From an uncultured Chloroflexia bacterium (GTDB taxonomy: Bacteria; Chloroflexota; Limnocylindria; Limnocylindrales; CSP1-4), in the NCBI GenBank assembly GCA_963704775.1, contig CAVPHR010000006.1, forward strand, positions 75 through 64,074: a stretch of DNA of 64,000 nt, written 5' to 3'. Below the pieces are notes generated by a model, which saw only the letters and a program-made list of their open reading frames with translations, did no database searches and was not told where the DNA came from. A program made the position numbers and the translations under genes. The first letter of the stretch is position 1. Each line of letters begins with the position of its first letter. This document shows positions 1,525-38,676 of this stretch, one piece after another.

Positions 1525-3660
1525 TCACGGTTGTCTCTCTGCAAGCACCCGAACATCCCAGGGCCCGAGTTGGACGTGATCTTGGGTGTGGAACGTTTCC
1601 CCAGTCAGAATGTCGTGCACCTCGGTGGGCACGGATACTGAGGCGGGATCCCAGGACCAGTTGTGCAGGAATCGGAGCCTGGTTCCGTCGACGGCCGCTG
1701 CGCCGGTCGAGGTCATCGTGGCCGGCAGCTCGCACCAGGGTTGAACGACGTCGGTGGCTAGCCACTGGAAGAGCGACTTGGCAAAGCTCGAGTCGGGGAT
1801 GGTGCCGACGCATGTGATGCGACCCCTCTCGTGGTCACGCGTGGTTATCGCCGGCCATCGACTGAAGTGCGGGTGTTCGTATGTCGCGACGACCTGCGCG
1901 TCGTCTACGAGCAGTCCGTCACACCATCGCGTGGCCGTAGCCGCGTCGAGCTTGATCGTGGCCCCGTCGGCAGGAAGAACAGGGATCATGCTCTTCAGGT
2001 TGCTGAACTCGTCATAGTGGACGCCTGAAGCCTGTGCCAGGCGGCCGGGAGCCGTCTCGGTCCGAGCGCGCGCCTCGTGATCCGCGTATCCGGTCCGTGG
2101 GCCGATGACGAGATGCCCTCCCGCGGCCGCGTAGTCCGCCAGCCAGTCGAGTAGGTGGTCCGGGCTCATGTAGTGGCCGGGCACGACGAGGAGCGGATGA
2201 CTGGCGGCGAACTCGGCCGGATGGGTGGTGGTCGCCTTCCGGGAATGCAGGATCCGGGCCGAGAGTCCGGCGTCGAAAGCGCCGCGGTAGAAGGGGGCGA
2301 AGATCCCGTCGTACGCCCGGGCATCGGGTCCGCCTCCCGCTGCCGCCAACGGCGGGTATTTCTGCATGAGCCAGCGGTTCGGGAGCGAATACAGGAAGGC
2401 GACTTCTGCGTCGGGTCGACATCCCGCCACCAGCCGTCCTGCGCGCCGGAACTCGTCACCGACCTGGCGGAGCTCGTCGAAGGTTCGGCCCGGGTGACCC
2501 GCGTGGGGAAGGACCCCACCCCAGGAGGTTTCGGTACCGAAGTGCAGCGTGTGCCAGTGCCAGTACTCGACCATCCGCGCTCCACGGGCGACCAGCGCCC
2601 ACGCGACCTGACGCCACTGGCCGTCAAAGGCAGGGCGGTTGTCCCAGGGAGGACCGATGTGCATGGCATTGGTTTCGGTGACGAGGAAGCCCTCTTGGCG
2701 TGAGGAGTACATCCGGTCCGCGGAGAAGTACAGCGCCCAAGTTCCGGTGGTGGCCCAGTTCTGATCGTGCGGTCCGGAGCCGTCGTCCGGGAGCTGTAGC
2801 CCGTCCTGCATGGCGTAGTAGAGGTTCCCCCCAGTGGTGTCGAGGGCATCAGTGACCAGATCGTCGTCGACGGCGGGCCGGTCGTAGGCGATGCAGGTCG
2901 TGACGAACTGTCCGGGGGAGGAGTACTCCCGGACGATGTCGGCCTGCCAGTTGATGAACTGGGTGGTCTGCGCGGCCTGGAAGCGACGCCAGGCGACGTC
3001 GTACTGGGGCTGCGTGTTGCCATCGGGTGCCCAAAGATCGTCCCAGGTCGAGAGTCGGTGCGACCAGTAGACGAGGCCCCACTCACGGTTGAGGCTGTCT
3101 ACGTCGCCGTAACGATGACGCAGGTCGTCCACGAAGCGTTGGAAGACGCCGCGGTTGTGAAGGAGATGAAGGCCGGGTTCGTTGTCGACTTGGAAGCCGA
3201 CGACGGCGGGATGCCCCGCATAGCGACGAAGGATCTTGCGGATCACCCGGTCGGCATGGAAGAGGAAGGCTGGGTGCGTGAAATCGACTTCCTGCCGAGC
3301 CCCCCAAGGGATCCGTTCGCCCGTGGATCGTTCGCCGGCGATCTCCGGATACAGCCGGGCCAACCACGGCGGCACGGCATACGTGGGCGTGCCAAGGATG
3401 ACGGAGATGCCCCGCCGCGCGGCACCGTCGAGAACCGGCTCGAGCCAGTCCAGATCGAACTGGCCGTTCTCCGGTTCCCAGGTCGACCAGACCGACTCAC
3501 CGACTCGGATGACCGAGAAGTGCGCCTCCTGCATGAGATCGAGATCGACATCCAGCCGGTCATACGGTTGGTACTCGTGGTAGTAAGCCGCACCGAACAA
3601 CACGCGGTCGGAACCGGCCAACATCGCCCCACTCCTGTCGTCGTTCACTGCCCGGGTCAC
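1525..3660 (-). CDS. Glycoside hydrolase family 42 (beta-galactosidase-type)
   Basis: 711-aa ORF with the GH42 N-terminal TIM-barrel signature FGAAYYHEYQPYDRLDVDLDLMQEAHFSVIRVGESVWSTWEPENGQFDLDWLEPVLD. The GTG start overlaps the upstream GntR stop (GTGA). Confidence 0.85.
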   Translation of the reverse strand: MTRAVNDDRSGAMLAGSDRVLFGAAYYHEYQPYDRLDVDLDLMQEAHFSVIRVGESVWSTWEPENGQFDLDWLEPVLDGAARRGISVILGTPTYAVPPWLARLYPEIAGERSTGERIPWGARQEVDFTHPAFLFHADRVIRKILRRYAGHPAVVGFQVDNEPGLHLLHNRGVFQRFVDDLRHRYGDVDSLNREWGLVYWSHRLSTWDDLWAPDGNTQPQYDVAWRRFQAAQTTQFINWQADIVREYSSPGQFVTTCIAYDRPAVDDDLVTDALDTTGGNLYYAMQDGLQLPDDGSGPHDQNWATTGTWALYFSADRMYSSRQEGFLVTETNAMHIGPPWDNRPAFDGQWRQVAWALVARGARMVEYWHWHTLHFGTETSWGGVLPHAGHPGRTFDELRQVGDEFRRAGRLVAGCRPDAEVAFLYSLPNRWLMQKYPPLAAAGGGPDARAYDGIFAPFYRGAFDAGLSARILHSRKATTTHPAEFAASHPLLVVPGHYMSPDHLLDWLADYAAAGGHLVIGPRTGYADHEARARTETAPGRLAQASGVHYDEFSNLKSMIPVLPADGATIKLDAATATRWCDGLLVDDAQVVATYEHPHFSRWPAITTRDHERGRITCVGTIPDSSFAKSLFQWLATDVVQPWCELPATMTSTGAAAVDGTRLRFLHNWSWDPASVSVPTEVHDILTGETFHTQDHVQLGPWDVRVLAERQP

Positions 3661-4415
3661 TCCTTGACGCTCCCAGCGGTGAACTTCGGGATCTGCCTGG
3701 CTTCTGCGTTCGCGCTCCCACCGTCGACAAAGGTCTCGAGCCGCTCCAGCGCTGACACCAGGTGGGCGCGCATCGCTTCCTCGGCGCCATCCGGGTCGTG
3801 CTTGGCGACCGCATCGACCACCGCCAGGTGCTCGTTCTTCGTCACCGAATGAAGGCCCGCGTGGTAGTAGAGCCGGAAGGTGTGCAGGTGGCTGCGCAGT
3901 CGGGTCAGCATGTCGCTGATCATCTGGTTGCCCGCGAGGTCGGCGACCATCGCGTGGAAGGTCGCGTCATAGACCATGTCCAACCGGTTCGCCGCAGCCG
4001 TGATCTCGCCGCCGGCTCCACCGGCCCGGGCAGCGCGGCGCAGCTCCTTGATCTCGTTCGGCTCCGCCTGGGCAGCGGCCTTGGCGGCCAATGCGGGTTC
4101 CACGAGCAGCCGCAGCTCGATGAGCTCGCGCACCTGCTCGATCCCCATGAGGGGCGCCACCGTGTAGCTGCGCCCTGGCTGCTTCACGATCAAACCGTCG
4201 GCCTCGACGCGTGCCAAGGCCTCGCGCACCGGTGTCGGCGACACGCCGAGGGTGCGGGCGAGCTCTTCGATGTTGAGCCTGGCGCCGGGTTCGAACGCGT
4301 GGGTCATGAGCATGTCGGTGACGATCTCGTAGACCGAGCCGGGCAGCGGTTGCCGTTGGGCCAGGCGCTGTCCTGCGGCGGACTCATGGATTGCTTCGAT
4401 CTGATAACGGTCCAT
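3657..4415 (-). CDS. GntR-family transcriptional regulator (FadR/FCD-type C-terminal domain)
   Basis: Winged-HTH motif LNIEELARTLGVSPTPVREALARVEADGLIVKQPGRSYTVAP followed by a helical FCD-like domain. Divergent from the ABC importer operon. Confidence 0.85.
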   Translation of the reverse strand: MDRYQIEAIHESAAGQRLAQRQPLPGSVYEIVTDMLMTHAFEPGARLNIEELARTLGVSPTPVREALARVEADGLIVKQPGRSYTVAPLMGIEQVRELIELRLLVEPALAAKAAAQAEPNEIKELRRAARAGGAGGEITAAANRLDMVYDATFHAMVADLAGNQMISDMLTRLRSHLHTFRLYYHAGLHSVTKNEHLAVVDAVAKHDPDGAEEAMRAHLVSALERLETFVDGGSANAEARQIPKFTAGSVKE

Positions 4416-13757: not shown

Positions 13758-13800
13758 AACGTCCGGTCAGAGATCGCACGCTATCGAAGGATGGCGATCC

Positions 13801-13949
13801 GGCGAATCAGGTGAACGTCCAGAAGTCGAATCAGGTGAACTTCGCGGCATCGCGTGGCTCCTTCTTGGAGTCCACGCCCTTGCTCTTGCCGCACGAAACC
13901 ACCAGATGTGGTGTGGAGGTGTTCCATGGATCGCTACCCATGGGGTAGC
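13801..13949. repeat. Copy 1 of a tRNA-adjacent module (two TCAGGTGAAC motifs plus two hairpins)
   Basis: Alignable by eye to 20542-20688. Shared blocks are ggcgaatcaggtgaacg, agaagtcgaatcaggtg, ggctccttctt, ccgcacg and aaccaccagatgtggtg. It ends in hairpin GCTACCC-atg-GGGTAGC abutting the tRNA-derived repeat. Confidence 0.6.
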
Positions 13950-13994
13950 TGGCTGGCGAGGAAGGATTCGAACCTTCGATCTCCTGATCCAGAG
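13950..13994 (-). repeat. Partial tRNA-Gln (3' 45 nt, CCA end to anticodon loop): att-like direct repeat
   Basis: tggctggcgaggaaggattcgaaccttcgatctcctgatccagag is identical to 20689-20733 inside the complete tRNA-Gln. Identity ends in the anticodon loop. Confidence 0.85.
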
Positions 13995-14430
13995 GACTCC
14001 CGACGTATTTCGCCGATGGTCGGTGCGATCTGAGCGTGGCGCGGGCTCGATTTCGGTTGGTCCGGCGGGCAATCAGGTTGAACATGCCGGACGGAGTCAG
14101 GTGAACGTCATTCGTTCAAGTAACTCCGGGACTGAACGTAACGCGCTCGACGACGGTTGGGAAGGGGAGCGGTTCCCGCTGTTCCGACGACTCCTGGTCC
14201 CGAACAGCTCATCTGACGTGCAAAGACATCCGCAACGATTATCGCGGGAGGCAACAGTTCAGCGAATGCGGGAGTGGTTCGCCGAACCATTGCCGGGGTG
14301 ATCGTTCTTGCTTGCATAGCTGTCCAGGACCACCACGATGAGTCTGGGGAAGCGGACGTGCCACTATTCGAAGACGTCGATATCGAGTCCGTGGCGGCAA
14401 AGGGGGTGGGGTGAGGTGACAGCAGGAAGC

Positions 14431-15363
14431 ATGATGGCGTTGAGGGCGCACAGGCAGGGTGGCCCGGAAGTTCTGGTATATGAATCTGCGCCACGGCCGA
14501 CCCCGGGGAGCGACGAGGTTCTGATCAGCGTCCACGCGGCGGCGATCACGTTCGCCGAGTTGACCTGGCCCGAGACTTGGGCCACGGATGGTGTCGACCG
14601 GACTCCGGTCATCCCGTCCCACGAGTTCTCTGGGGTCGCGGCCGAGGTCGGCGATGGCGTAACCGGACTGTCGGTCGGTGACGAGCTGTACGGGCTTGTG
14701 CCGTTCGACCGGGACGGCGCCGCGGCGGAGTACGTCAGCGTACCGGCCGCGAGTGTGGCCACCCGGCCTCGCACGGTGTCGCACGTCGTTGCGGCGGCCG
14801 CGGTGCTCCCTGCACTGACCGCCTGGGAAGCCTTGGTCGATCACGCGAAAGTTCAACCCGGCCAACGTGTGCTCGTGCGTGGAGGCGCCGGCGGTGTCGG
14901 GTCCTTCGTCACCCAGCTGGCGACTGCGCTTGGAGCCCGGGTCACGGCCACGGTGCATGCCCCCGACGCGGGGCACGTCCTCACTCTGGGCGCCGAACGC
15001 GTGATCACCAACGAACAGGAGTCGCTCGACGCGGAGAAAGGTGCCTTTGACGCCGTGATCGACGCCGTCGGTCAGGAAACACCGGAGGCCCTGTTCGCGG
15101 CACTCCGTCCTGGCGGGCGCCTGATTACCCTCCAGGAGCCTCCCTCACAGCAGACGGCCGACAAATACGGCGTAACGGCCCTCTTCTTCGTCGTGACGGC
15201 GAACCGGGACCGTCTGTCACAGGTGGCCGACATGATCGACACCGGCAAGCTGAAGGTCAGCGTCGCCGCGACGTTTCCGCTGGCCGATGGCCGAGCCGCC
15301 TACCAAAGCGGCGCCTCTAGGAGACACCGCCCGGGGAAGACCGTGCTGGTCGTCCGGGACTGA
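14431..15363 (+). CDS. NADPH:quinone oxidoreductase-like MDR (zeta-crystallin family)
   Basis: MMALRAHRQGGPEVLVYESAPRPTPGSDEVLISVHAAAITFAELTW...RVLVRGGAGGVGSFVTQLA...GKTVLVV. ATG preceded by AGGAAG. The upstream part of the 14338 ORF is not conserved-looking. Confidence 0.8.
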   Translation: MMALRAHRQGGPEVLVYESAPRPTPGSDEVLISVHAAAITFAELTWPETWATDGVDRTPVIPSHEFSGVAAEVGDGVTGLSVGDELYGLVPFDRDGAAAEYVSVPAASVATRPRTVSHVVAAAAVLPALTAWEALVDHAKVQPGQRVLVRGGAGGVGSFVTQLATALGARVTATVHAPDAGHVLTLGAERVITNEQESLDAEKGAFDAVIDAVGQETPEALFAALRPGGRLITLQEPPSQQTADKYGVTALFFVVTANRDRLSQVADMIDTGKLKVSVAATFPLADGRAAYQSGASRRHRPGKTVLVVRD

Positions 15364-15377
15364 GCGGTTCTCCGCAG

Positions 15378-16358
15378 GTGATAGCCATGCGACGCATGCA
15401 GGCGGTCGGCATCGACGCGTTCGGCGGCGAGGTACGAGTGCTCAAGCTCGCGGCGCCAGCGTCGCCCGCGCCGGACGAGGTCGTGATCTCGGTGCGCGCC
15501 GCCGGTGTCGGCAACTGGGACGAGTTCGTCCGCGTCGGCGACTGGGATGTCGGCCGGCCGCCGCCGCTGGCCCTCGGGGTTGAAGCGGCCGGGGTCGTTG
15601 ACGCGGCCGGCGAGGACGTGACGAGCCTCGCACCAGGCGACGAGGTGCTCACCCACCCACTGCCGCTGCGACACCAGGGCGCGTGGGCGGAGTGGCTCGT
15701 CGCTCCGGCCGCGCTCGTCGCGCGGAAGCCGGCCGCCGTCCCATGGGCGGCGGCGGCCGCATTCCCGGTGCCCGCGCTCACCGCCGACCAGGCGCTAACC
15801 GACGCCGCACCCGTCCCTGCCGGGAAATGGGTGCTCGTGCACGGCGCCGGTGGCGTCACCGGCGGGCTCGCCGTCCAGCTCGCGGTCGCGCGAGGCGCGA
15901 CCGTCGTCGCGACGGCGGGCCCGTCGAGCGTGGCGCGCATCCTCGGCGACGGGGCACATGCTGTAGTCGACTATCACGATCCCGAGTGGCCGACCCTCGT
16001 GCGAAACGCAACTCCAGGTGGACGTGGAGTTGACGCTGTAGTGAATGCGGCCCGCGGCGGGGCGGCGACCGCGTTGCAGACCGTCGCAGACGGCGGCCAT
16101 CTGGCGACGATCACTGGCGATCCGCCGTCACCTGAACGAGGAGTCACGGTCGCGAACATCTACGTCCGCGCGGACGGTGCTCGGCTTGCGGTCCTGGTGG
16201 CAGCACTCGCGGATGGGCTGCTGTCGCTCCACGTGGGAGCCACATTCCCGCTCGCAGACGCGGCCACGGCGCTCCAGGGCGCCGTCACCGGCCGCGCCGC
16301 CGGCGCGACCGTCCTGTCTCTCGAAGGCATCTCAAGTGACGCGCCGGACCACAAGTAA
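15378..16358 (+). CDS. NADPH:quinone oxidoreductase-like MDR, second paralogue
   Basis: MQAVGIDAFGGEVRVLKLAAPASPAPDEVVISVRAAGVGNWDEFVRVGDW...VLVHGAGGVTGGLAVQLA. The exact start (15378, 15387 or 15396) is uncertain. Confidence 0.8.
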   Translation: MIAMRRMQAVGIDAFGGEVRVLKLAAPASPAPDEVVISVRAAGVGNWDEFVRVGDWDVGRPPPLALGVEAAGVVDAAGEDVTSLAPGDEVLTHPLPLRHQGAWAEWLVAPAALVARKPAAVPWAAAAAFPVPALTADQALTDAAPVPAGKWVLVHGAGGVTGGLAVQLAVARGATVVATAGPSSVARILGDGAHAVVDYHDPEWPTLVRNATPGGRGVDAVVNAARGGAATALQTVADGGHLATITGDPPSPERGVTVANIYVRADGARLAVLVAALADGLLSLHVGATFPLADAATALQGAVTGRAAGATVLSLEGISSDAPDHK

Positions 16359-16423
16359 GTCGTACGCGCCGCGAGACACATAGCTCCGCGAGGCGGCTGC
16401 CTCGCCGTACAGCGCATCTGGGG

Positions 16424-16519
16424 GGCTCCTTCTTTGAGCCCGCGCCACGGCCTTTCCGCACGACACCAGATGCGGTGTGGGGAGTCTTCTGGGCCGCCAC
16501 CCGTTGGGTCGCTGGCTGG
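16424..16519. repeat. Copy 2 of the tRNA-adjacent module (diverged, ends in TGGCTGG only)
   Basis: ggctccttctttgagcccgcgccacggcctttccgcacgacaccagatgcggtgt... parallels 20597-20660. It keeps the ACACC/GGTGT hairpin and the terminal heptamer of the tRNA-Gln end, then diverges. Confidence 0.5.
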
Positions 16520-16578
16520 CTGGAGAGCGGCGCCTTCCAAGGCGCCTGTCGCGAGTTCGAACCTCGTCTCCCGCTCCA
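16504..16578 (+). pseudogene. tRNA-Gly(UCC)-like fragment (good 3' half, degenerate 5' half)
   Basis: 16531-16578 reads cgCCTTCCAAggcgcc-tgtc-GCGAGTTCGAACCTCGT-CTCCCGC-T-CCA. That gives a Gly UCC anticodon loop, canonical T-arm, acceptor 3' strand, U discriminator and CCA. No GCGGGAG 5' acceptor strand is present upstream, and the anticodon stem is offset by 1 nt. Confidence 0.45.
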
Positions 16579-16612
16579 AACATAAGTTCCACGTTCGGAC
16601 TCACCGAAAGCC

Positions 16613-17206
16613 ATGAAGGCTACGCGGGATGCCAAGCTGGCCTCTCAGACGGCACGGCTTGCTACCATTCGGCGCATGGTGAGAGGTGACTGGCCTGAGC
16701 TCGAATACCTCGTCATCGGGACGGGCGTGAGAGTCCTGCGCGCCAATGAAGCAGCGGCTAGCATTTCGGCCGCAGTCCAGGCATTGAACGAGGCGACTGC
16801 GGCCCTCCCACAGCAGCCAACGGCGGCGGACGTATCGAAATTGGCGGGACTGTGCGCGGCGCAGGTGGCGGCGCTCGAGGCAGTAGCCACGGCACTCGAG
16901 ACCGAGATGGCCGCCATCGCACCGGGGCAGGACCGGATCATCGACATCATCGACGCCGACCACGAGGCGACTGGCGTTGCCGAGGAGTACCTCGGGGGCG
17001 CCGTGTCCCTTGGCACGGCGGCCGCATTCCTGATCGAGGAACTCGCCAGGCTCCCCCGATCCCTCGAAAAGCTTGGTCGGACCTTCCCGACGGTCGAAGA
17101 AGCGACCGACGGTCTGGCTTCTACGATTCGTCGAGTGGTCGAGGCGCTTGAGCCAGCGATCGGATGGGGGGCTCGCTCCACCGCGATCCTGTCCGACTGG
17201 ACTTGA
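16613..17206 (+). CDS. Hypothetical protein, Ala-rich and predicted all-helical, no recognisable family
   Basis: 197-aa ORF with moderate GC3, lower than neighbouring core genes. It competes with an antisense 212-aa shadow ORF. I recognised no motif. Confidence 0.4.
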   Translation: MKATRDAKLASQTARLATIRRMVRGDWPELEYLVIGTGVRVLRANEAAASISAAVQALNEATAALPQQPTAADVSKLAGLCAAQVAALEAVATALETEMAAIAPGQDRIIDIIDADHEATGVAEEYLGGAVSLGTAAAFLIEELARLPRSLEKLGRTFPTVEEATDGLASTIRRVVEALEPAIGWGARSTAILSDWT

Positions 17207-17219
17207 CGCCGGCGGCTAG

Positions 17220-17477
17220 GTGAGCCGCAGTCAGCACTTCCGGGCAGACTCCTCGGCATCGCGGGTCGCGGTCCGTGGTCCACTGCTGATCATCGACGGC
17301 GAGAAGGACCACACGGTGCCGCCGGCGATCGCGAATGCCGCCTACAACCGGCAGAAGGGCAACCCGGGCGTGACGGAGTACGTGGAGATCACGGACCGAG
17401 GCCACTCCCTCACCATCGATCACGGCTGGCGCGAGGTCGCCGACACCGCGCTCGCCTTTGTCAAGCGCTTCGCCTAG
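17220..17477 (+). pseudogene. C-terminal stub of an alpha/beta hydrolase (about the last 65 residues only)
   Basis: PLLIIDGEKDHTVPPAIANAAYNRQKGNPGVTEYVEITDRGHSLTIDHGWREVADTALAFVKRFA matches the strand-8/His-loop end of alpha/beta hydrolases. The nucleophile elbow and N-terminal 200+ aa are missing. Confidence 0.6.
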
Positions 17478-17792
17478 TCGTGAACGTCCGTTCCGCGCCG
17501 GCCGTGCGTGACCGTCGCCTCGGCGGCGTCCCATCGGCGGAGGCTGATACGGCCGGCGCACCAGCTTTGCGAATCGATGGTCGGGCAAATGGGGACCGAC
17601 CAAATCATCGGCCGACGGGCTGGAAGGTCCCGGGCTATTCCAGTTCGTCAGTAGTCCGCCGGCGAGCCGCCGCCCCGACCCTGGTCCTCTGCCTGACATG
17701 GCACCCGAATAGCCTCCGACGGATCGCCGGCGAGCCCGGGCTGGATCACGACCAGCGGCGCGACGAGCGCGATGATCTGTTCGGGTCGCAGG

Positions 17793-18839
17793 TCAGACAT
17801 GGGGTCGCGTCGGACCCGGGATGTCTGTGCCCAGTCCATGGCTCTCCAGGCGGCTGCGCTGGTCGAGCGAGAAGAGCAGCGCCAACGAGGGCACGATCAG
17901 CACGGCCGCGACGACGAAGATCACGACCAGTGCCTGCAGTGAGCCCTCTGGTGCGGCAGCGGCCGCGATCGACATCGACCCGGGCAGGATGTCGGGGTAC
18001 TGGGCGGCGCCCCAGCCCCAGACGATGGCCACCACCGCCCCGATGGCCAGGGCCCGGGTGAACATCAACGCCTGTCGTCGGAGCAGGAGGAGAGCAGCGA
18101 GCCCCAGGACGACCGAACCGACGACGAACGGCCAGCCACGTCCGCTCAGGTTCTCGACGAACGCCGGGGTGTCGAAGCGCAGGACCACGAGTCCGCCGAT
18201 GGCAAGGCCGCCGGCGACGAGACCGGCGAGCGTGGCCCGACGCAGGAAGTACGCGGCAAGGCGGGTCTCGGAGCGGCGCCGGGCGTCGGCCACCAGGAAG
18301 ACCGCGGCGAGGTAGGCACAGATCGTGATCGCGAGGAGCCCGACGAAGATCGAGGTCGGGTTGATCCAGCTCTCGATCGGGTCCCCGGCAGCGTTGCCCA
18401 TCGGCACCCGACCGGACACGATCGCGCCGACCGCCGCACCGAGGAAGAACGGGGTGACCACGGACGAGATGGCGAAGACGGCACCGGCCGCGCGCCGGCC
18501 GGTCAGGTTCGCCGCGGTCGGGCGGAAGGCGAAGGCCGCACCGCGCAGGACGATCCCGAGCGCCGCGAGACTCAGGGGTACGAACAGGGTCGACATGATC
18601 GCGGCGAACGCGGGCGGGAAGGCGGTCCAAAGGATGACGATGGCGAAGATGAGCCAGGTGTGGTTCGCCTCCCAGACCGGTCCGATCGCGTCGGCGATGA
18701 GTGCCCGTGGCGCTGCCCCGCGCTCCGAGCCGCCCGCCGTCAGATCCCAGAACCCGGCCCCGAAGTCGGCGCCACCGAAGACCGCGTAGACGGTCAGCGC
18801 GAGCAGGAGCATGACCGCCGCGAGGTCGGCGGTCGTCAT
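17793..18839 (-). CDS. cydB: Cytochrome bd-type quinol oxidase subunit II
   Basis: 348-aa polytopic protein starting MTTADLAAVMLLLALTVYAVFGGADFGAGFWDL (typical CydB N-terminus). ATGA overlap with cydA. Confidence 0.9.
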   Translation of the reverse strand: MTTADLAAVMLLLALTVYAVFGGADFGAGFWDLTAGGSERGAAPRALIADAIGPVWEANHTWLIFAIVILWTAFPPAFAAIMSTLFVPLSLAALGIVLRGAAFAFRPTAANLTGRRAAGAVFAISSVVTPFFLGAAVGAIVSGRVPMGNAAGDPIESWINPTSIFVGLLAITICAYLAAVFLVADARRRSETRLAAYFLRRATLAGLVAGGLAIGGLVVLRFDTPAFVENLSGRGWPFVVGSVVLGLAALLLLRRQALMFTRALAIGAVVAIVWGWGAAQYPDILPGSMSIAAAAAPEGSLQALVVIFVVAAVLIVPSLALLFSLDQRSRLESHGLGTDIPGPTRPHV

Positions 18840-20296
18840 CGGTCGGCCTCGTCCTTCGTTCGGTCGTCATCGGTTCGATCGCCGTAGTCCTCGTCGGCGG
18901 TCCGATGCGGCCCGTAGGGGACAGAACCCTCATCCGTGGACAGGCTCGAGAGGTCGCGGCCACCGGCGGCGGCATCGGCCCGTGCCCAGCGACGGGCCAG
19001 CGCTCGCAGGGCGAACAGGGTGGCGATGCCCAGACCGGCGTACAGGACGACGACCGAGATGAACGTGGCTCGGACCCCGTCGGCCTGGGTGACCGCGTCG
19101 CTCGTGCGCAGCACCTCGTACACGACCCACGGCTGACGGCCGACCTCGGTGACGATCCAGCCGGCCTCGAGAGCCAGGATCGCCCCGATCCCGGCGAGTG
19201 TCGCGACCCGCAGGAACCAGCGTGAGGTCGCATGGTCACGCCGCCGGACGCGCAGGAACAACGCCCACGCACCCAGGAGGACGAGCACGGTCCCGATCCC
19301 GACCATCGTGTCCCAGGCCAGGTGGACGATCGTGGCCGGCGGTCGCTGGTCGACCGGGATCTGGTCGAAACCGGTGATCGTCGTGTTGGTATCGAACGCG
19401 GCCAGCCACGACGTCAGGTCGGGGATCCGGAGCCCTCCGATGACCTGGCCGTCGATGAGGATCCCTCCGACCGTCACGGGCTGGTGCGGACCTGTCGTCG
19501 TGATCAGCTCCATCGCCGCGAACTTCGCCGGCTGGTCGAGGAAGACCTCGCGTGCCGCGAAGTCACCGACCGCGACCTGGATCGGGGCCAGGATCGCGGC
19601 CACCGTGAACGGGATAGCGAATCCCAGCCGCACGTAGCGATCGCGCTGGCCCCGCAGCAGGCCGACGGCGTAGACCGAGGCCAGCAGGAAGCCGGTGACC
19701 ATGTACGCCGCAATGAGCATGTGCGGGACTTCGTAGGCGGTCGCCCCGTTGAAGATGACCTCGAGGGGTGCGACGGAGACGACCCGCCCGTCCGGACCCA
19801 GGATGTACCCGGCCGGCTGGTTCATCCAGCTGTTGGCGGCGACCACGGAGAACGTCCCACCCAGGCCGGCCAGGGCCACCGGGATCCCGGACCAGAAGTG
19901 GGCCCACGGCGAGAGCCGGTCCCAACCATAGATGTAGATGGCGATGAAGATGGCTTCGAGGAAGAAGAAGATGCCCTCGATCGCGAAGGGGATCCCGAAG
20001 GCGCCACCGAAGCGACCCATGAGGACCGGCCAAAGGAGGCCCATCTCGAAAGATAGGACCGTCCCGGTGACCGCACCGACGGCGAAGGTCACGGCCATGA
20101 CCAACGACCACCGGCGGGCAAGCAGGAGTGCCGCGGGATCGGCGCGGCGCAGACCGATCCAGTTGGCGATCAGGACCAGCGTCGGCAGGCCCACTCCGAG
20201 GCAGGCCAGGATGATGTGGAACCCGAGGGTGAATGCCATCTGGGAGCGGGCGGCAACCAGGTTTGCCGCGACGTCGTAGACCATCGGACGCGTCAC
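18836..20296 (-). CDS. cydA: Cytochrome bd-type quinol oxidase subunit I
   Basis: ARSQMAFTLGFHIILACLGVG..., GAVTGTVLSFEMGLLWP, FAIEGIFFFLEAIFIAIYIYGW and a Q-loop region. It carries an acidic C-terminal tail. Confidence 0.9.
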   Translation of the reverse strand: MTRPMVYDVAANLVAARSQMAFTLGFHIILACLGVGLPTLVLIANWIGLRRADPAALLLARRWSLVMAVTFAVGAVTGTVLSFEMGLLWPVLMGRFGGAFGIPFAIEGIFFFLEAIFIAIYIYGWDRLSPWAHFWSGIPVALAGLGGTFSVVAANSWMNQPAGYILGPDGRVVSVAPLEVIFNGATAYEVPHMLIAAYMVTGFLLASVYAVGLLRGQRDRYVRLGFAIPFTVAAILAPIQVAVGDFAAREVFLDQPAKFAAMELITTTGPHQPVTVGGILIDGQVIGGLRIPDLTSWLAAFDTNTTITGFDQIPVDQRPPATIVHLAWDTMVGIGTVLVLLGAWALFLRVRRRDHATSRWFLRVATLAGIGAILALEAGWIVTEVGRQPWVVYEVLRTSDAVTQADGVRATFISVVVLYAGLGIATLFALRALARRWARADAAAGGRDLSSLSTDEGSVPYGPHRTADEDYGDRTDDDRTKDEADR

Positions 20297-20541
20297 CTCA
20301 CCGGACGGGTCATCTAGCGGTCGTCCGAGTGTACGGCGGGCCGGGTATCCTCGGGACGACCCTGACCCTCAGCTTCGAGTCGACCCGTGGAAGTCCTGAC
20401 CTCGATGAGAGACGCGGTTTCGATACTCCTCGAGCGGAACAGGCTGATCTCCGTGCTCGGATACCACCTGAGTTGAACCAAACGCGTGGCGGCGCGGGTC
20501 GCGGCTCGGAGTACGCGGCGTCAGGTGACTTTTCGCCCTTC

Positions 20542-20688
20542 GGCGAATCAGGTGAACGACGAGAAGTCGAATCAGGTGCACTTCGGCGCGTTTCTGGGCT
20601 CCTTCTTCGAGCCCGCGCCACGCTCTTCCCGCACGCAACCACCAGATGTGGTGGTCGGAAGGCCTCAGATCCCTACGGCTGGTAGGGA
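20542..20688. repeat. Copy 3 of the tRNA-adjacent module (immediately 3' of tRNA-Gln)
   Basis: Holds TCAGGTGAAC-type motifs at 20548 and 20572, with a third variant just upstream at 20521. It has the CACCA/TGGTG hairpin and hairpin CCCTAC-ggctg-GTAGGG abutting the tRNA 3' end. Confidence 0.6.
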
Positions 20689-20763
20689 TGGCTGGCGAGG
20701 AAGGATTCGAACCTTCGATCTCCTGATCCAGAGTCAGGCGCCTTACCGCTTGGCCACTCGCCA
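20689..20763 (-). tRNA. tRNA-Gln: tRNA-Gln (anticodon CUG), CCA encoded
   Basis: Reverse complement folds as TGGCGAG-TG-GCC-AAGCGGTAA-GGC-G-CCTGA-CTCTGGA-TCAGG-AGATC-GAAGG-TTCGAAT-CCTTC-CTCGCCA-G-CCA. This is a full cloverleaf of 75 nt, architecturally parallel to E. coli tRNA-Gln. Confidence 0.92.
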
Positions 20764-38359: not shown

Positions 38360-38567
38360 GGGAGCCGTCGGCGTTCAGTCGTCGGACGTAGCCGTTGGGG
38401 CGTCCGTCGCAGAGCGAACTGAGAATCGGCGTTGCTGGCGAGTCCAGCCCAAGGCGGTGCCGAGCACGTGAGCGAGCGCACCTAAAGGTGCGTGAGTGAG
38501 CGCGCGCAGAAGCCAACGCAGGGATGGGCCGTCAGAAGCGCCGCCGTGGTAACGTGCGATTAACTTC

Positions 38568-38660
38568 ATATGCCTCCGGGGAGCGCTGGTGCGCTGAGAG
38601 TGTGGCAACCGCCACAGACCCGCCGAACCTGATCCGGCTCATACCGGCGAAGGAAGCAGG
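38568..38660 (+). promoter_or_regulatory. TPP (THI-box) riboswitch
   Basis: ccGGGGAGCgctggtgcgCTGAGAgtgtggcaaccgccacagACCCgccGAACCTGATCCGGctcATACCGGCGAAGGAAGc matches the conserved TPP aptamer core (CTGAGA, ACCC, GAACCTGATC-GG-TAATGCC-GCG-AGGGA pattern). It sits upstream of a ykoE-type gene. Confidence 0.85.
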
Positions 38661-38676
38661 CCGATCGACATCGATG

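Follow-up and report, generated by a model that had tools for sequence, protein, structure and literature searches.

Modules beside a Chloroflexota tRNA-Gln gene as probable decayed ends of integrative islands, with phased repeats as putative recombinase-binding sites

An insertion at tRNA-Gln and three copies of a module

The stretch analyzed here (the window) comprises 64,000 nucleotides of contig CAVPHR010000006.1 from an uncultured Chloroflexia bacterium, with a GC content of about 68% and a sole tRNA gene, tRNA-Gln(CTG), detected on the minus strand by using ARAGORN. A module said to occur three times near tRNA-Gln ends, and a decamer repeated in and around it, had been described in a first-pass annotation made from the sequence alone. 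The tRNA gene and the two copies of a 45-nt core sequence are located as follows.

20689-20763, minus strand: intact tRNA-Gln(CTG) gene (ARAGORN; Rfam tRNA, 70 bits)
20689-20733, minus strand: attL core, the 3' 45 nt of the tRNA gene (coordinates from the repeat comparison)
13950-13994, minus strand: attR core, a displaced 45-nt 3' fragment of tRNA-Gln, identical to 20689-20733

The tRNA segments adjoining the first and third modules were indeed identical, as had been noted (45/45 nt), and this identity block begins at CTCTGG, within the anticodon loop; in the tRNA, GGCGCCTGA precedes that left border. To the left of 13994, three related loci (L003, L004 and L007) share 97.7-99.6% identity with the window; they represent the empty site, in which module copy 1 comes directly behind the full tRNA, with the same 2-hydroxyacid dehydrogenase gene next to it. 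Additionally, in a soil-metagenome contig (run X3), 13949 is connected to 20689 through the common 45 nt, and 6739 bp are skipped. Given the empty site in close relatives and in this soil contig, the segment 13995-20688 is an insertion with the 45-nt repeat at both borders. Islands in tRNA genes restore the tRNA that they split, and the displaced fragment marks the island end (PMC4383910).

Three homologous copies of the module were recovered by alignment, at 13791-13949, 16414-16519 and 20480-20688, in agreement with the number first reported. Their parts are listed below, with SD standing for Shine-Dalgarno.

20480-20688, minus strand: module copy 3, tRNA-proximal (P') arm of the island (homology to the 5' ends of intact integrase genes in L011 and L012)
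20670-20688, 20639-20654 and 20596-20614, minus strand: hairpin, palindrome and SD hairpin of copy 3
20589-20591, minus strand: degenerate start codon of copy 3, ACG
20568-20581, 20544-20557 and 20517-20530, minus strand: repeats P'1, P'2 and P'3 of copy 3
to about 20480, minus strand: integrase remnant of copy 3, about 37 codons
16414-16519, minus strand: module copy 2, an apparent internal scar (same block in L001, 95.9% identity)
16496-16512, 16464-16477 and 16423-16441, minus strand: hairpin, palindrome and SD hairpin of copy 2, with an ATG
13767-13949, minus strand: module copy 1, resident tRNA flank (directly behind the full tRNA in empty-site loci L003, L004 and L007)
13933-13949, 13899-13913 and 13856-13873, minus strand: hairpin, palindrome and SD hairpin of copy 1
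13848-13850, minus strand: ATG of copy 1, opening a 27-codon stub to a TGA at 13767-13769 (first 20 codons match integrase)
13827-13840 and 13803-13816, minus strand: repeats of copy 1

Because the module lies downstream of the tRNA, it has to be read on the minus strand, which is the tRNA strand. The order is then the CCA end, a hairpin of 6-8 bp, the palindrome CCACCACATCTGGTGG, CGTGCGG, the SD hairpin, 7-8 nt, ATG and the GTTCACCTGATTCG repeats. The SD hairpin (GGGCTC-GAAGAAG-GAGCCC) contains a strong Shine-Dalgarno sequence, AAGAAGGAGCC, which appears in reverse complement as the shared block ggctccttctt. The first-pass annotation had treated the module as a free-standing tRNA-adjacent unit; it is instead a tRNA trailer together with the 5' untranslated region, ribosome-binding site and first codons of an integrase gene. 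Integrase codons 1 to about 37 are kept in copy 3 and codons 1-20 in copy 1. None are kept in copy 2, in which the ATG is followed by neither repeats nor integrase codons and in which no decamer occurs. Position directly on the 3' side of a tRNA-Gln end, which had been ascribed to every copy, is correct for copies 1 and 3; copy 2 has only the last 8-12 nt of such an end (GCCAGCCA).

In order to find relatives, one genome per species (185,579 species) was scanned with the exact module pattern. Only eight loci matched, all of them in soil metagenome-assembled genomes labeled 'uncultured Chloroflexia' and each at a full or partial tRNA-Gln end; confinement to tRNA or island junctions had been proposed earlier as a check. 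Among viral contigs, the repeat pair gave 0 matches and the module pattern gave 2, both of low GC, lacking a tRNA and attributable to chance.

Such copies might instead have come from segmental duplication or from homologous recombination involving paralogous tRNA-Gln loci. Two full tRNA-Gln genes do lie 2.4 kb apart in L008, and the homology between copies 1 and 3 reaches about 170 nt past the tRNA. Against this stand the precise anticodon-loop junction, which is common to at least 16 independent contigs with differing cargo, the full identity of the 45-nt core between flanks that are 80-86% identical, and the integrase genes attached to the module in relatives. This origin is considered highly improbable, and so is the companion idea that the repeats are iterons of a lost replicon. 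Iterons had also been suggested in the first-pass annotation, and no replication gene was annotated in the window region or in any related locus.

Integrase genes opened by the module in related loci

In related metagenomic loci, the same leader opens a tyrosine integrase gene of 300-355 aa. In L001, an open reading frame (ORF) begins at the module ATG, continues into and past the repeats and has matches to both Phage_integrase and the SAM-like core-binding domain; it is interrupted by one premature stop; a read-through search returned intact homologues of 353-355 aa with 80-88% identity and more distant ones with 49-62%. An intact integrase is present in L011, L012, L016 and L017, where the order is tRNA-Gln, hairpin, palindrome, SD, ATG, three repeats and integrase. 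Its SAM-like core-binding domain spans aa 43-125 and its catalytic domain aa 159-308, and no N-terminal arm-binding domain was found in it (all by Pfam).

The first 38 aa of the integrase form an optional N-terminal extension, which is the leader fused to the integrase in the close family and which is absent from many called homologues. In L013 (9910-10008) and L015 (125-202), the SD and ATG open a separate short leader ORF that holds the repeats, and the TGA of this ORF overlaps the integrase start (GTGGCTGA and ATGGCTGA). Such an overlap of stop and start suggests translational coupling.

Three genes are common to intact elements (L011, L012, L013, L014, L015 and L017), namely those for the integrase, for a second tyrosine recombinase (about 300-320 aa) in convergent orientation and for an orphan protein (about 200 aa). 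Their cargo is mostly defence-related and includes type I restriction-modification, McrBC, Dcm, Vsr, an OLD-like nuclease with a UvrD helicase, a KAP NTPase and toxin-antitoxin genes. The orphan protein had no match in Pfam, in a PDB sequence search or in hhalign comparisons. The possibility that it consists of two core-binding-like domains was supported neither by Pfam and the PDB sequence search nor by hhalign against both recombinase alignments. No integrases were found in L002, L005, L006 or L008, nor downstream of other scars.

Phased repeats on both arms of the core

The seven decamer occurrences reported earlier, counting 1-nt variants, were confirmed. TCAGGTGAAC is exact at 13807, 13831, 14097 and 20548, compared with about 0.1 exact 10-mers expected by chance in the 128 kb of two-strand sequence. 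The decamer at 20572 has one substitution, that at 14073 is a 1-nt insertion variant (TCAGGTTGAAC) and that at 20521 a 1-nt deletion variant (TCAGGTGAC-T). A longer 14-mer, CGAATCAGGTGAAC, has three exact copies and one single-mismatch copy, and it was found nowhere else in the window. All occurrences share one orientation and form the pairs already described, with spacings of 24, 24, 27 and 24 bp.

Two of the decamers lie on the far side of the displaced core, in a distal arm with the following features.

13995-14200, minus strand: distal P arm (conserved in 4 genome-locus junctions and at least 12 metagenome contigs)
14093-14106 and 14070-14083, minus strand: repeats P1, GTTCACCTGACTCC, and P2, GTTCAACCTGATTG
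13995-14006, minus strand: junction, ACGTCGGGAGTC

In the window, the 4 junctions and the at least 12 contigs, the P arm (205 bp) always has the tRNA-Gln core 81 nt on and unrelated cargo on its other side. Of the 120 loci listed in the metagenome scan with the P arm, 12 were real, and the counts are lower bounds. The most invariant block of the arm, ACTTGAACGAATGACGTTCACCTGACTCCGTCCGGCATGTTCAACCTGATTGCC, is the one that holds the repeats at 14073 and 14097.

A 17-mer, GCGTGGCGCGGGCTCGA, occurs in the distal arm at 14034-14050 (plus strand) and, inverted, in the module at 20607-20623 (minus strand), just before the SD hairpin. The pair would flank the core in a circular attP and could be a site for a second protein. 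At the start of the P arm (14164-14194, minus strand) and in its homologues, two GGGAAC motifs stand 9 nt apart, the first of them being GGAAC in the window; they overlap a small hairpin (AGCGG-GAA-CCGCT) that marks the conserved outer boundary of the arm.

Repeats thus occur on both sides of the att-like core, as the first-pass annotation had described, and at conserved distances. The proximal arm has three and the distal arm two, all in the same orientation. On the proximal side, every member has CCTGA at much the same distances from the CCA end (about +112, +136 and +162), even L013 and L014, where the intervening sequence differs; the distal-arm repeats lie at -107 and -83 before the core. 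Conservation of the motif at related loci, the absence of which had been named as a refutation of the first-pass reading, was found at fixed positions.

The repeats also resemble the target itself. They share CCTGACTC or CCTGAYTC with the tRNA half-site beside the crossover: P1 and P'3 (CACCTGACTCC) have CCTGACTC in common with the tRNA sequence GGCGCCTGACTC, which adjoins the identity block on its left. Scars of other types downstream of this tRNA (L050, L054, L119 and L057) have one inverted and two direct copies spaced 23-24 bp apart (GCGCCTGACTC), with motifs (GCGCCTGAYTC or GGTCACCTGRCTCG) that are nearly the anticodon-stem half-site of the tRNA. A palindrome, TTGTGACAATTGTTACAA, is present in L050, with a near variant in L054.

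Within the integrase frame, repeats 1 and 2 read TCA-CCT-GAT-TCG. Among the synonymous codons used in this genome, TCA accounts for only 5%, CCT for 6% and GAT for 16%. Repeat 3 has the same 8-10-mer in a different frame (V/G/D-H-L-T), and the distal-arm copies are non-coding. From these rare codons, the two frames, the non-coding distal copies and the leader ORF of L013 and L015, the repeats appear to be constrained at the nucleotide rather than the peptide level. Selection for the encoded peptide (SSPDS or RSPDS), at the integrase N-terminus or in a leader peptide, would account for the related readings of repeats 1 and 2 elsewhere, namely CSPYS in L013, CRPDS in L015, RSPYS/RSPDS in P0023 and RSPNS in P0027. 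It would leave unexplained why, in a genome of 68% GC, rare codons ending in A or T are retained here and why the 8-10-mer recurs in a second frame and in the non-coding arm; moreover, many called homologues lack the N-terminal extension altogether. That the repeats are conserved for the sake of the peptide is most improbable.

Regulation of integrase expression is a more serious candidate for the main role of the repeats, either as repressor or excisionase-like operators or as a leader-peptide or rare-codon device acting through the overlapping stop and start. The repeats are placed just behind the Shine-Dalgarno sequence and ATG and are built of rare codons, the leader ORF of L013 and L015 ends across the integrase start, and read-through control is plausible in that no sigma-70-like promoter was found between the tRNA and the integrase. 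On the other hand, the two distal-arm copies are far from the integrase start when the element is integrated and yet are the best-conserved part of their arm, the motif resembles the core half-site, and repeat 3 is in another frame. A chiefly regulatory role is regarded as unlikely, although it is compatible with recombinase binding rather than exclusive of it.

Whether the module acts as a structured RNA was approached through its hairpins. Two had been described in the first-pass annotation as kept in all copies, the one abutting the tRNA end with a sequence that differs between copies. Structure kept through differing sequence was confirmed for this tRNA-adjacent hairpin, which is present in all three window copies and nearly all relatives, with per-sequence folding energies of -8 to -14 kcal/mol against -5 to -8 kcal/mol for shuffled sequences. 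Its stems are of two unrelated types (GCTRCCC/GGGTAGC and TCCCTAC/GTAGGGA), and L013 has a third form. For the palindrome and the SD hairpin, covariation was negligible (RNAalifold). Given that RNAalifold on 15 modules misaligned the two first-hairpin types, it was replaced for these by per-sequence folding. The tRNA-adjacent hairpin may be a replacement tRNA trailer or terminator brought by the element. Consensus promoter and terminator scans returned nothing useful, and this hairpin has no T-run.

A function of the whole module as RNA, be it as a tRNA trailer, as a small RNA or by pairing of its repeats to the anticodon stem (3' strand), would fit the retention of the CCA-adjacent hairpin with two unrelated stems, and the repeats, which mimic the 5' strand of that stem, could indeed pair with its 3' strand. 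Nothing in the modules matched Rfam at gathering or permissive thresholds (E <= 5), where only the tRNA and a distant thiamine pyrophosphate (TPP) riboswitch passed. The RNAalifold covariation term was positive, almost no compensatory changes were seen beyond the first hairpin, and the distal-arm copies are outside the tRNA transcript when the element is integrated. A terminator or trailer role of the first hairpin is, in any case, already part of the island explanation, and an RNA function for the module is very unlikely. A further candidate, the motif as a Rex, CRP or extracytoplasmic function (ECF) promoter element for cydAB, was dropped because the same module precedes integrase genes, or nothing, in relatives.

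Island ends, known systems and cargo

Taken together, the modules are read as decayed tRNA-side ends of integrative islands, with the phased repeats as accessory recombinase-binding sites, at a probability of about 0.72. The sequences show the anatomy, the insertion, the identity of the integrase and conservation at the nucleotide level. Identity of the modules as decayed island ends at tRNA-Gln is assigned with high confidence, whereas recombinase binding by the repeats is a functional assignment made from sequence and given slightly better than even odds. Since the repeats are core-like and the integrase has no arm-binding domain, they are interpreted as accessory copies of a core-type half-site, putatively bound by recombinase.

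An island most probably entered tRNA-Gln(CTG), between the anticodon loop and the 3' end, by site-specific recombination through a tyrosine recombinase. Its own 45-nt copy rebuilt the tRNA, and the original copy was displaced to 13950-13994. The module is then the tRNA-proximal arm, comprising the trailer hairpin, the palindrome, the integrase SD hairpin and start codon, and three GTTCACCTGAYTC repeats within the first 25 or so codons. Copy 3 is the island's own, its integrase cut after about 37 codons with cydAB behind; copy 2 is an internal scar, and copy 1 the scar of an older element, now fixed as the tRNA flank. The repeats would copy the left half-site of attB, i.e. the 5' strand of the anticodon stem, and their putative binders are a simple XerC/D-like integrase and/or its partner recombinase. 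Recombination complexes might be built on them, and because they overlap the region in which integrase translation starts, they could also serve in autoregulation of the integrase.

Several observations weigh against this reading. No integrase or recombinase was found among the window ORFs scanned (7.7 to 27.9 kb), and with the integrase absent from these ORFs the window island is unable to move on its own. A complete P-core-P' attP of an integrase-bearing element was not present in one piece within the 10-kb flanks of L011-L017, and in L045 just a junction of P arm, core, module and integrase was observed. Lack of an arm-binding domain in the integrase speaks against an arm-site role. Spacings of 24-26 bp are not a whole number of helical turns; roughly two turns had been suggested initially. 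The island's own left core half-site, GGGAGTC, is unlike the repeat motif. Finally, repeats 1 and 2 keep the S/R-S-P-D/Y-S reading in distant relatives, and some selection at the peptide level is possible.

The first-pass proposal of att or arm-type recombinase sites is upheld in its first half by the integration junction, the empty site, the integrase that starts in the module and the motif on both sides of the core. The repeats are not classical lambda-type arm sites, because an arm-binding domain is lacking and the repeats resemble the core half-site. In lambda attP, the arm-type sites P1, P2 and P'1-P'3 are unlike the core sites in sequence, and they are recognized by an N-terminal arm-binding domain that is separate. 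Likeness to lambda consists in phased direct repeats, two on one arm and three on the other, in one orientation and 80-210 bp from the core. Here, by contrast, the integrase has core-binding and catalytic domains only, the repeats are core-like and the proximal ones fall within the leader or the initial codons of the integrase.

Among described systems, the nearest analogy is offered by the tyrosine recombinase TnpI, which binds DR1 and DR2 motifs beside its IR1-IR2 core (PMC2847244). These extra direct copies of its own motif are accessory sequences that organize the synapse and give direction. In domain architecture and in the likeness of the repeats to the core, the present elements would fit such a system. 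TnpI, however, is the resolvase of a Tn3-family transposon with repeats on one side, adjoining the core, whereas the present system is integrative and has distant, putative sites on both sides.

Most mobile-element integrases that use arm sites have an arm-binding domain (PMC8138268), for which reason its absence in combination with phased repeats is somewhat unusual. The IntBrujita and IntKX subgroups (PMC8138268) likewise have core-binding and catalytic domains without an arm-binding domain and reside on mobile elements, but the phased repeats on both arms, the convergent second tyrosine recombinase and the conserved orphan of about 200 aa set the present elements apart from them.

As in tRNA islands of the Islander/TIGER type and P4-like islands (PMC4383910), the target is a tRNA 3' part, the element brings a replacement 3' part, a displaced identical fragment marks the far end, the integrase of intact relatives is beside the rebuilt tRNA, and the cargo is varied (defence genes, redox enzymes and regulators). 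Unlike typical tRNA islands, the scanned window ORFs contain no recombinase genes and the resident flank is an older scar of the same family. CIME-type elements and SGI1 tandem arrays (PMC2297512) similarly place units in series at one att site, some of them without an integrase; here the units are heavily rearranged, and mobilization in trans is hypothetical. Several junctions in series were found in L001, L005, L013 and L045, which argues for tandem accretion of islands followed by decay; the window, too, contains att-like junctions of the internal kind.

The family is undescribed and its hosts are uncultured Chloroflexota. A bolder and decidedly speculative model would make it a tRNA-Gln-specific element family of soil Chloroflexota with defence cargo. 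In it, the XerC/D-like integrase, itself lacking an arm-binding domain, would assemble together with the convergent second tyrosine recombinase and the orphan of about 200 aa on the phased attB half-site copies of both arms, the proximal ones being in the integrase leader ORF and thus coupling intasome assembly to integrase expression. Units without an integrase, such as the one in the window, would be mobilized in trans, producing a cassette-like array at the tRNA.

With core, arms, stub and cargo mapped, the puzzling repeat is explained by the scars that successive integrations left at a single tRNA gene, and cydAB and the dehydrogenase genes become horizontally acquired cargo. If the repeats are bound as proposed, they would show, in a natural integrative system, how accessory sites of the core type can exert higher-order control, much as in TnpI/IRS. 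For the detection of such islands in Chloroflexota metagenomes, good sequence tags are available in the module and in the conserved distal arm of 200 bp.

The island now contains cydAB, a few unassigned ORFs, a tRNA-Gly-like fragment, copy 2 and two zinc dehydrogenase genes. The assignable features, some of them supported by GC content at third codon positions (GC3), are as follows.

18836-20296, minus strand: cydA (Pfam Cyt_bd_oxida_I, E = 1.6e-124; GC3 frame analysis)
17793-18839, minus strand: cydB (GC3 frame analysis; comparison with L001)
14338-15363 and 15378-16358, plus strand: two zinc-type alcohol dehydrogenase / quinone oxidoreductase genes (Pfam ADH_N, ADH_zinc_N)
16519-16575, plus strand: tRNA-Gly(UCC)-like 3' fragment (Rfam tRNA, 18.8 bits, below threshold)

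The cydAB genes (17793-20296) occupy the place that the integrase and second recombinase have in intact relatives. No cydDC transporter genes were found among the nearby ORFs scanned, and an exact-protein look-up of cydB returned no record.

The tRNA-Gly-like fragment retains the anticodon arm, T arm, acceptor end and CCA, with the D arm missing, and stands tail to tail with the stub of tRNA-Gln in copy 2, a block that L001 has as well. Soil contigs bearing real tRNA-Gly genes continue from 16532 and 16547. The fragment is probably the scar or displaced fragment of another integration event, carried as cargo.

In L008, a gene of the glutaminyl-tRNA synthetase (GlnRS) type, with tRNA-synt_1c and both anticodon-binding domains, was located at 1527-4067 between the two full tRNA-Gln genes, and a GlnRS-type gene is also upstream of tRNA-Gln in L012 (277-1500). 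The TPP riboswitch of the window is at 38567-38673 on the plus strand (Rfam RF00059, 68.6 bits). A second partial tRNA-Gln 3' end was observed in L005 at about 3960-4004 (minus strand) with no module behind it; the unit between this end and the junction at 1607-1651 is 2.3 kb long and includes an ECF sigma factor / DUF6596 gene.

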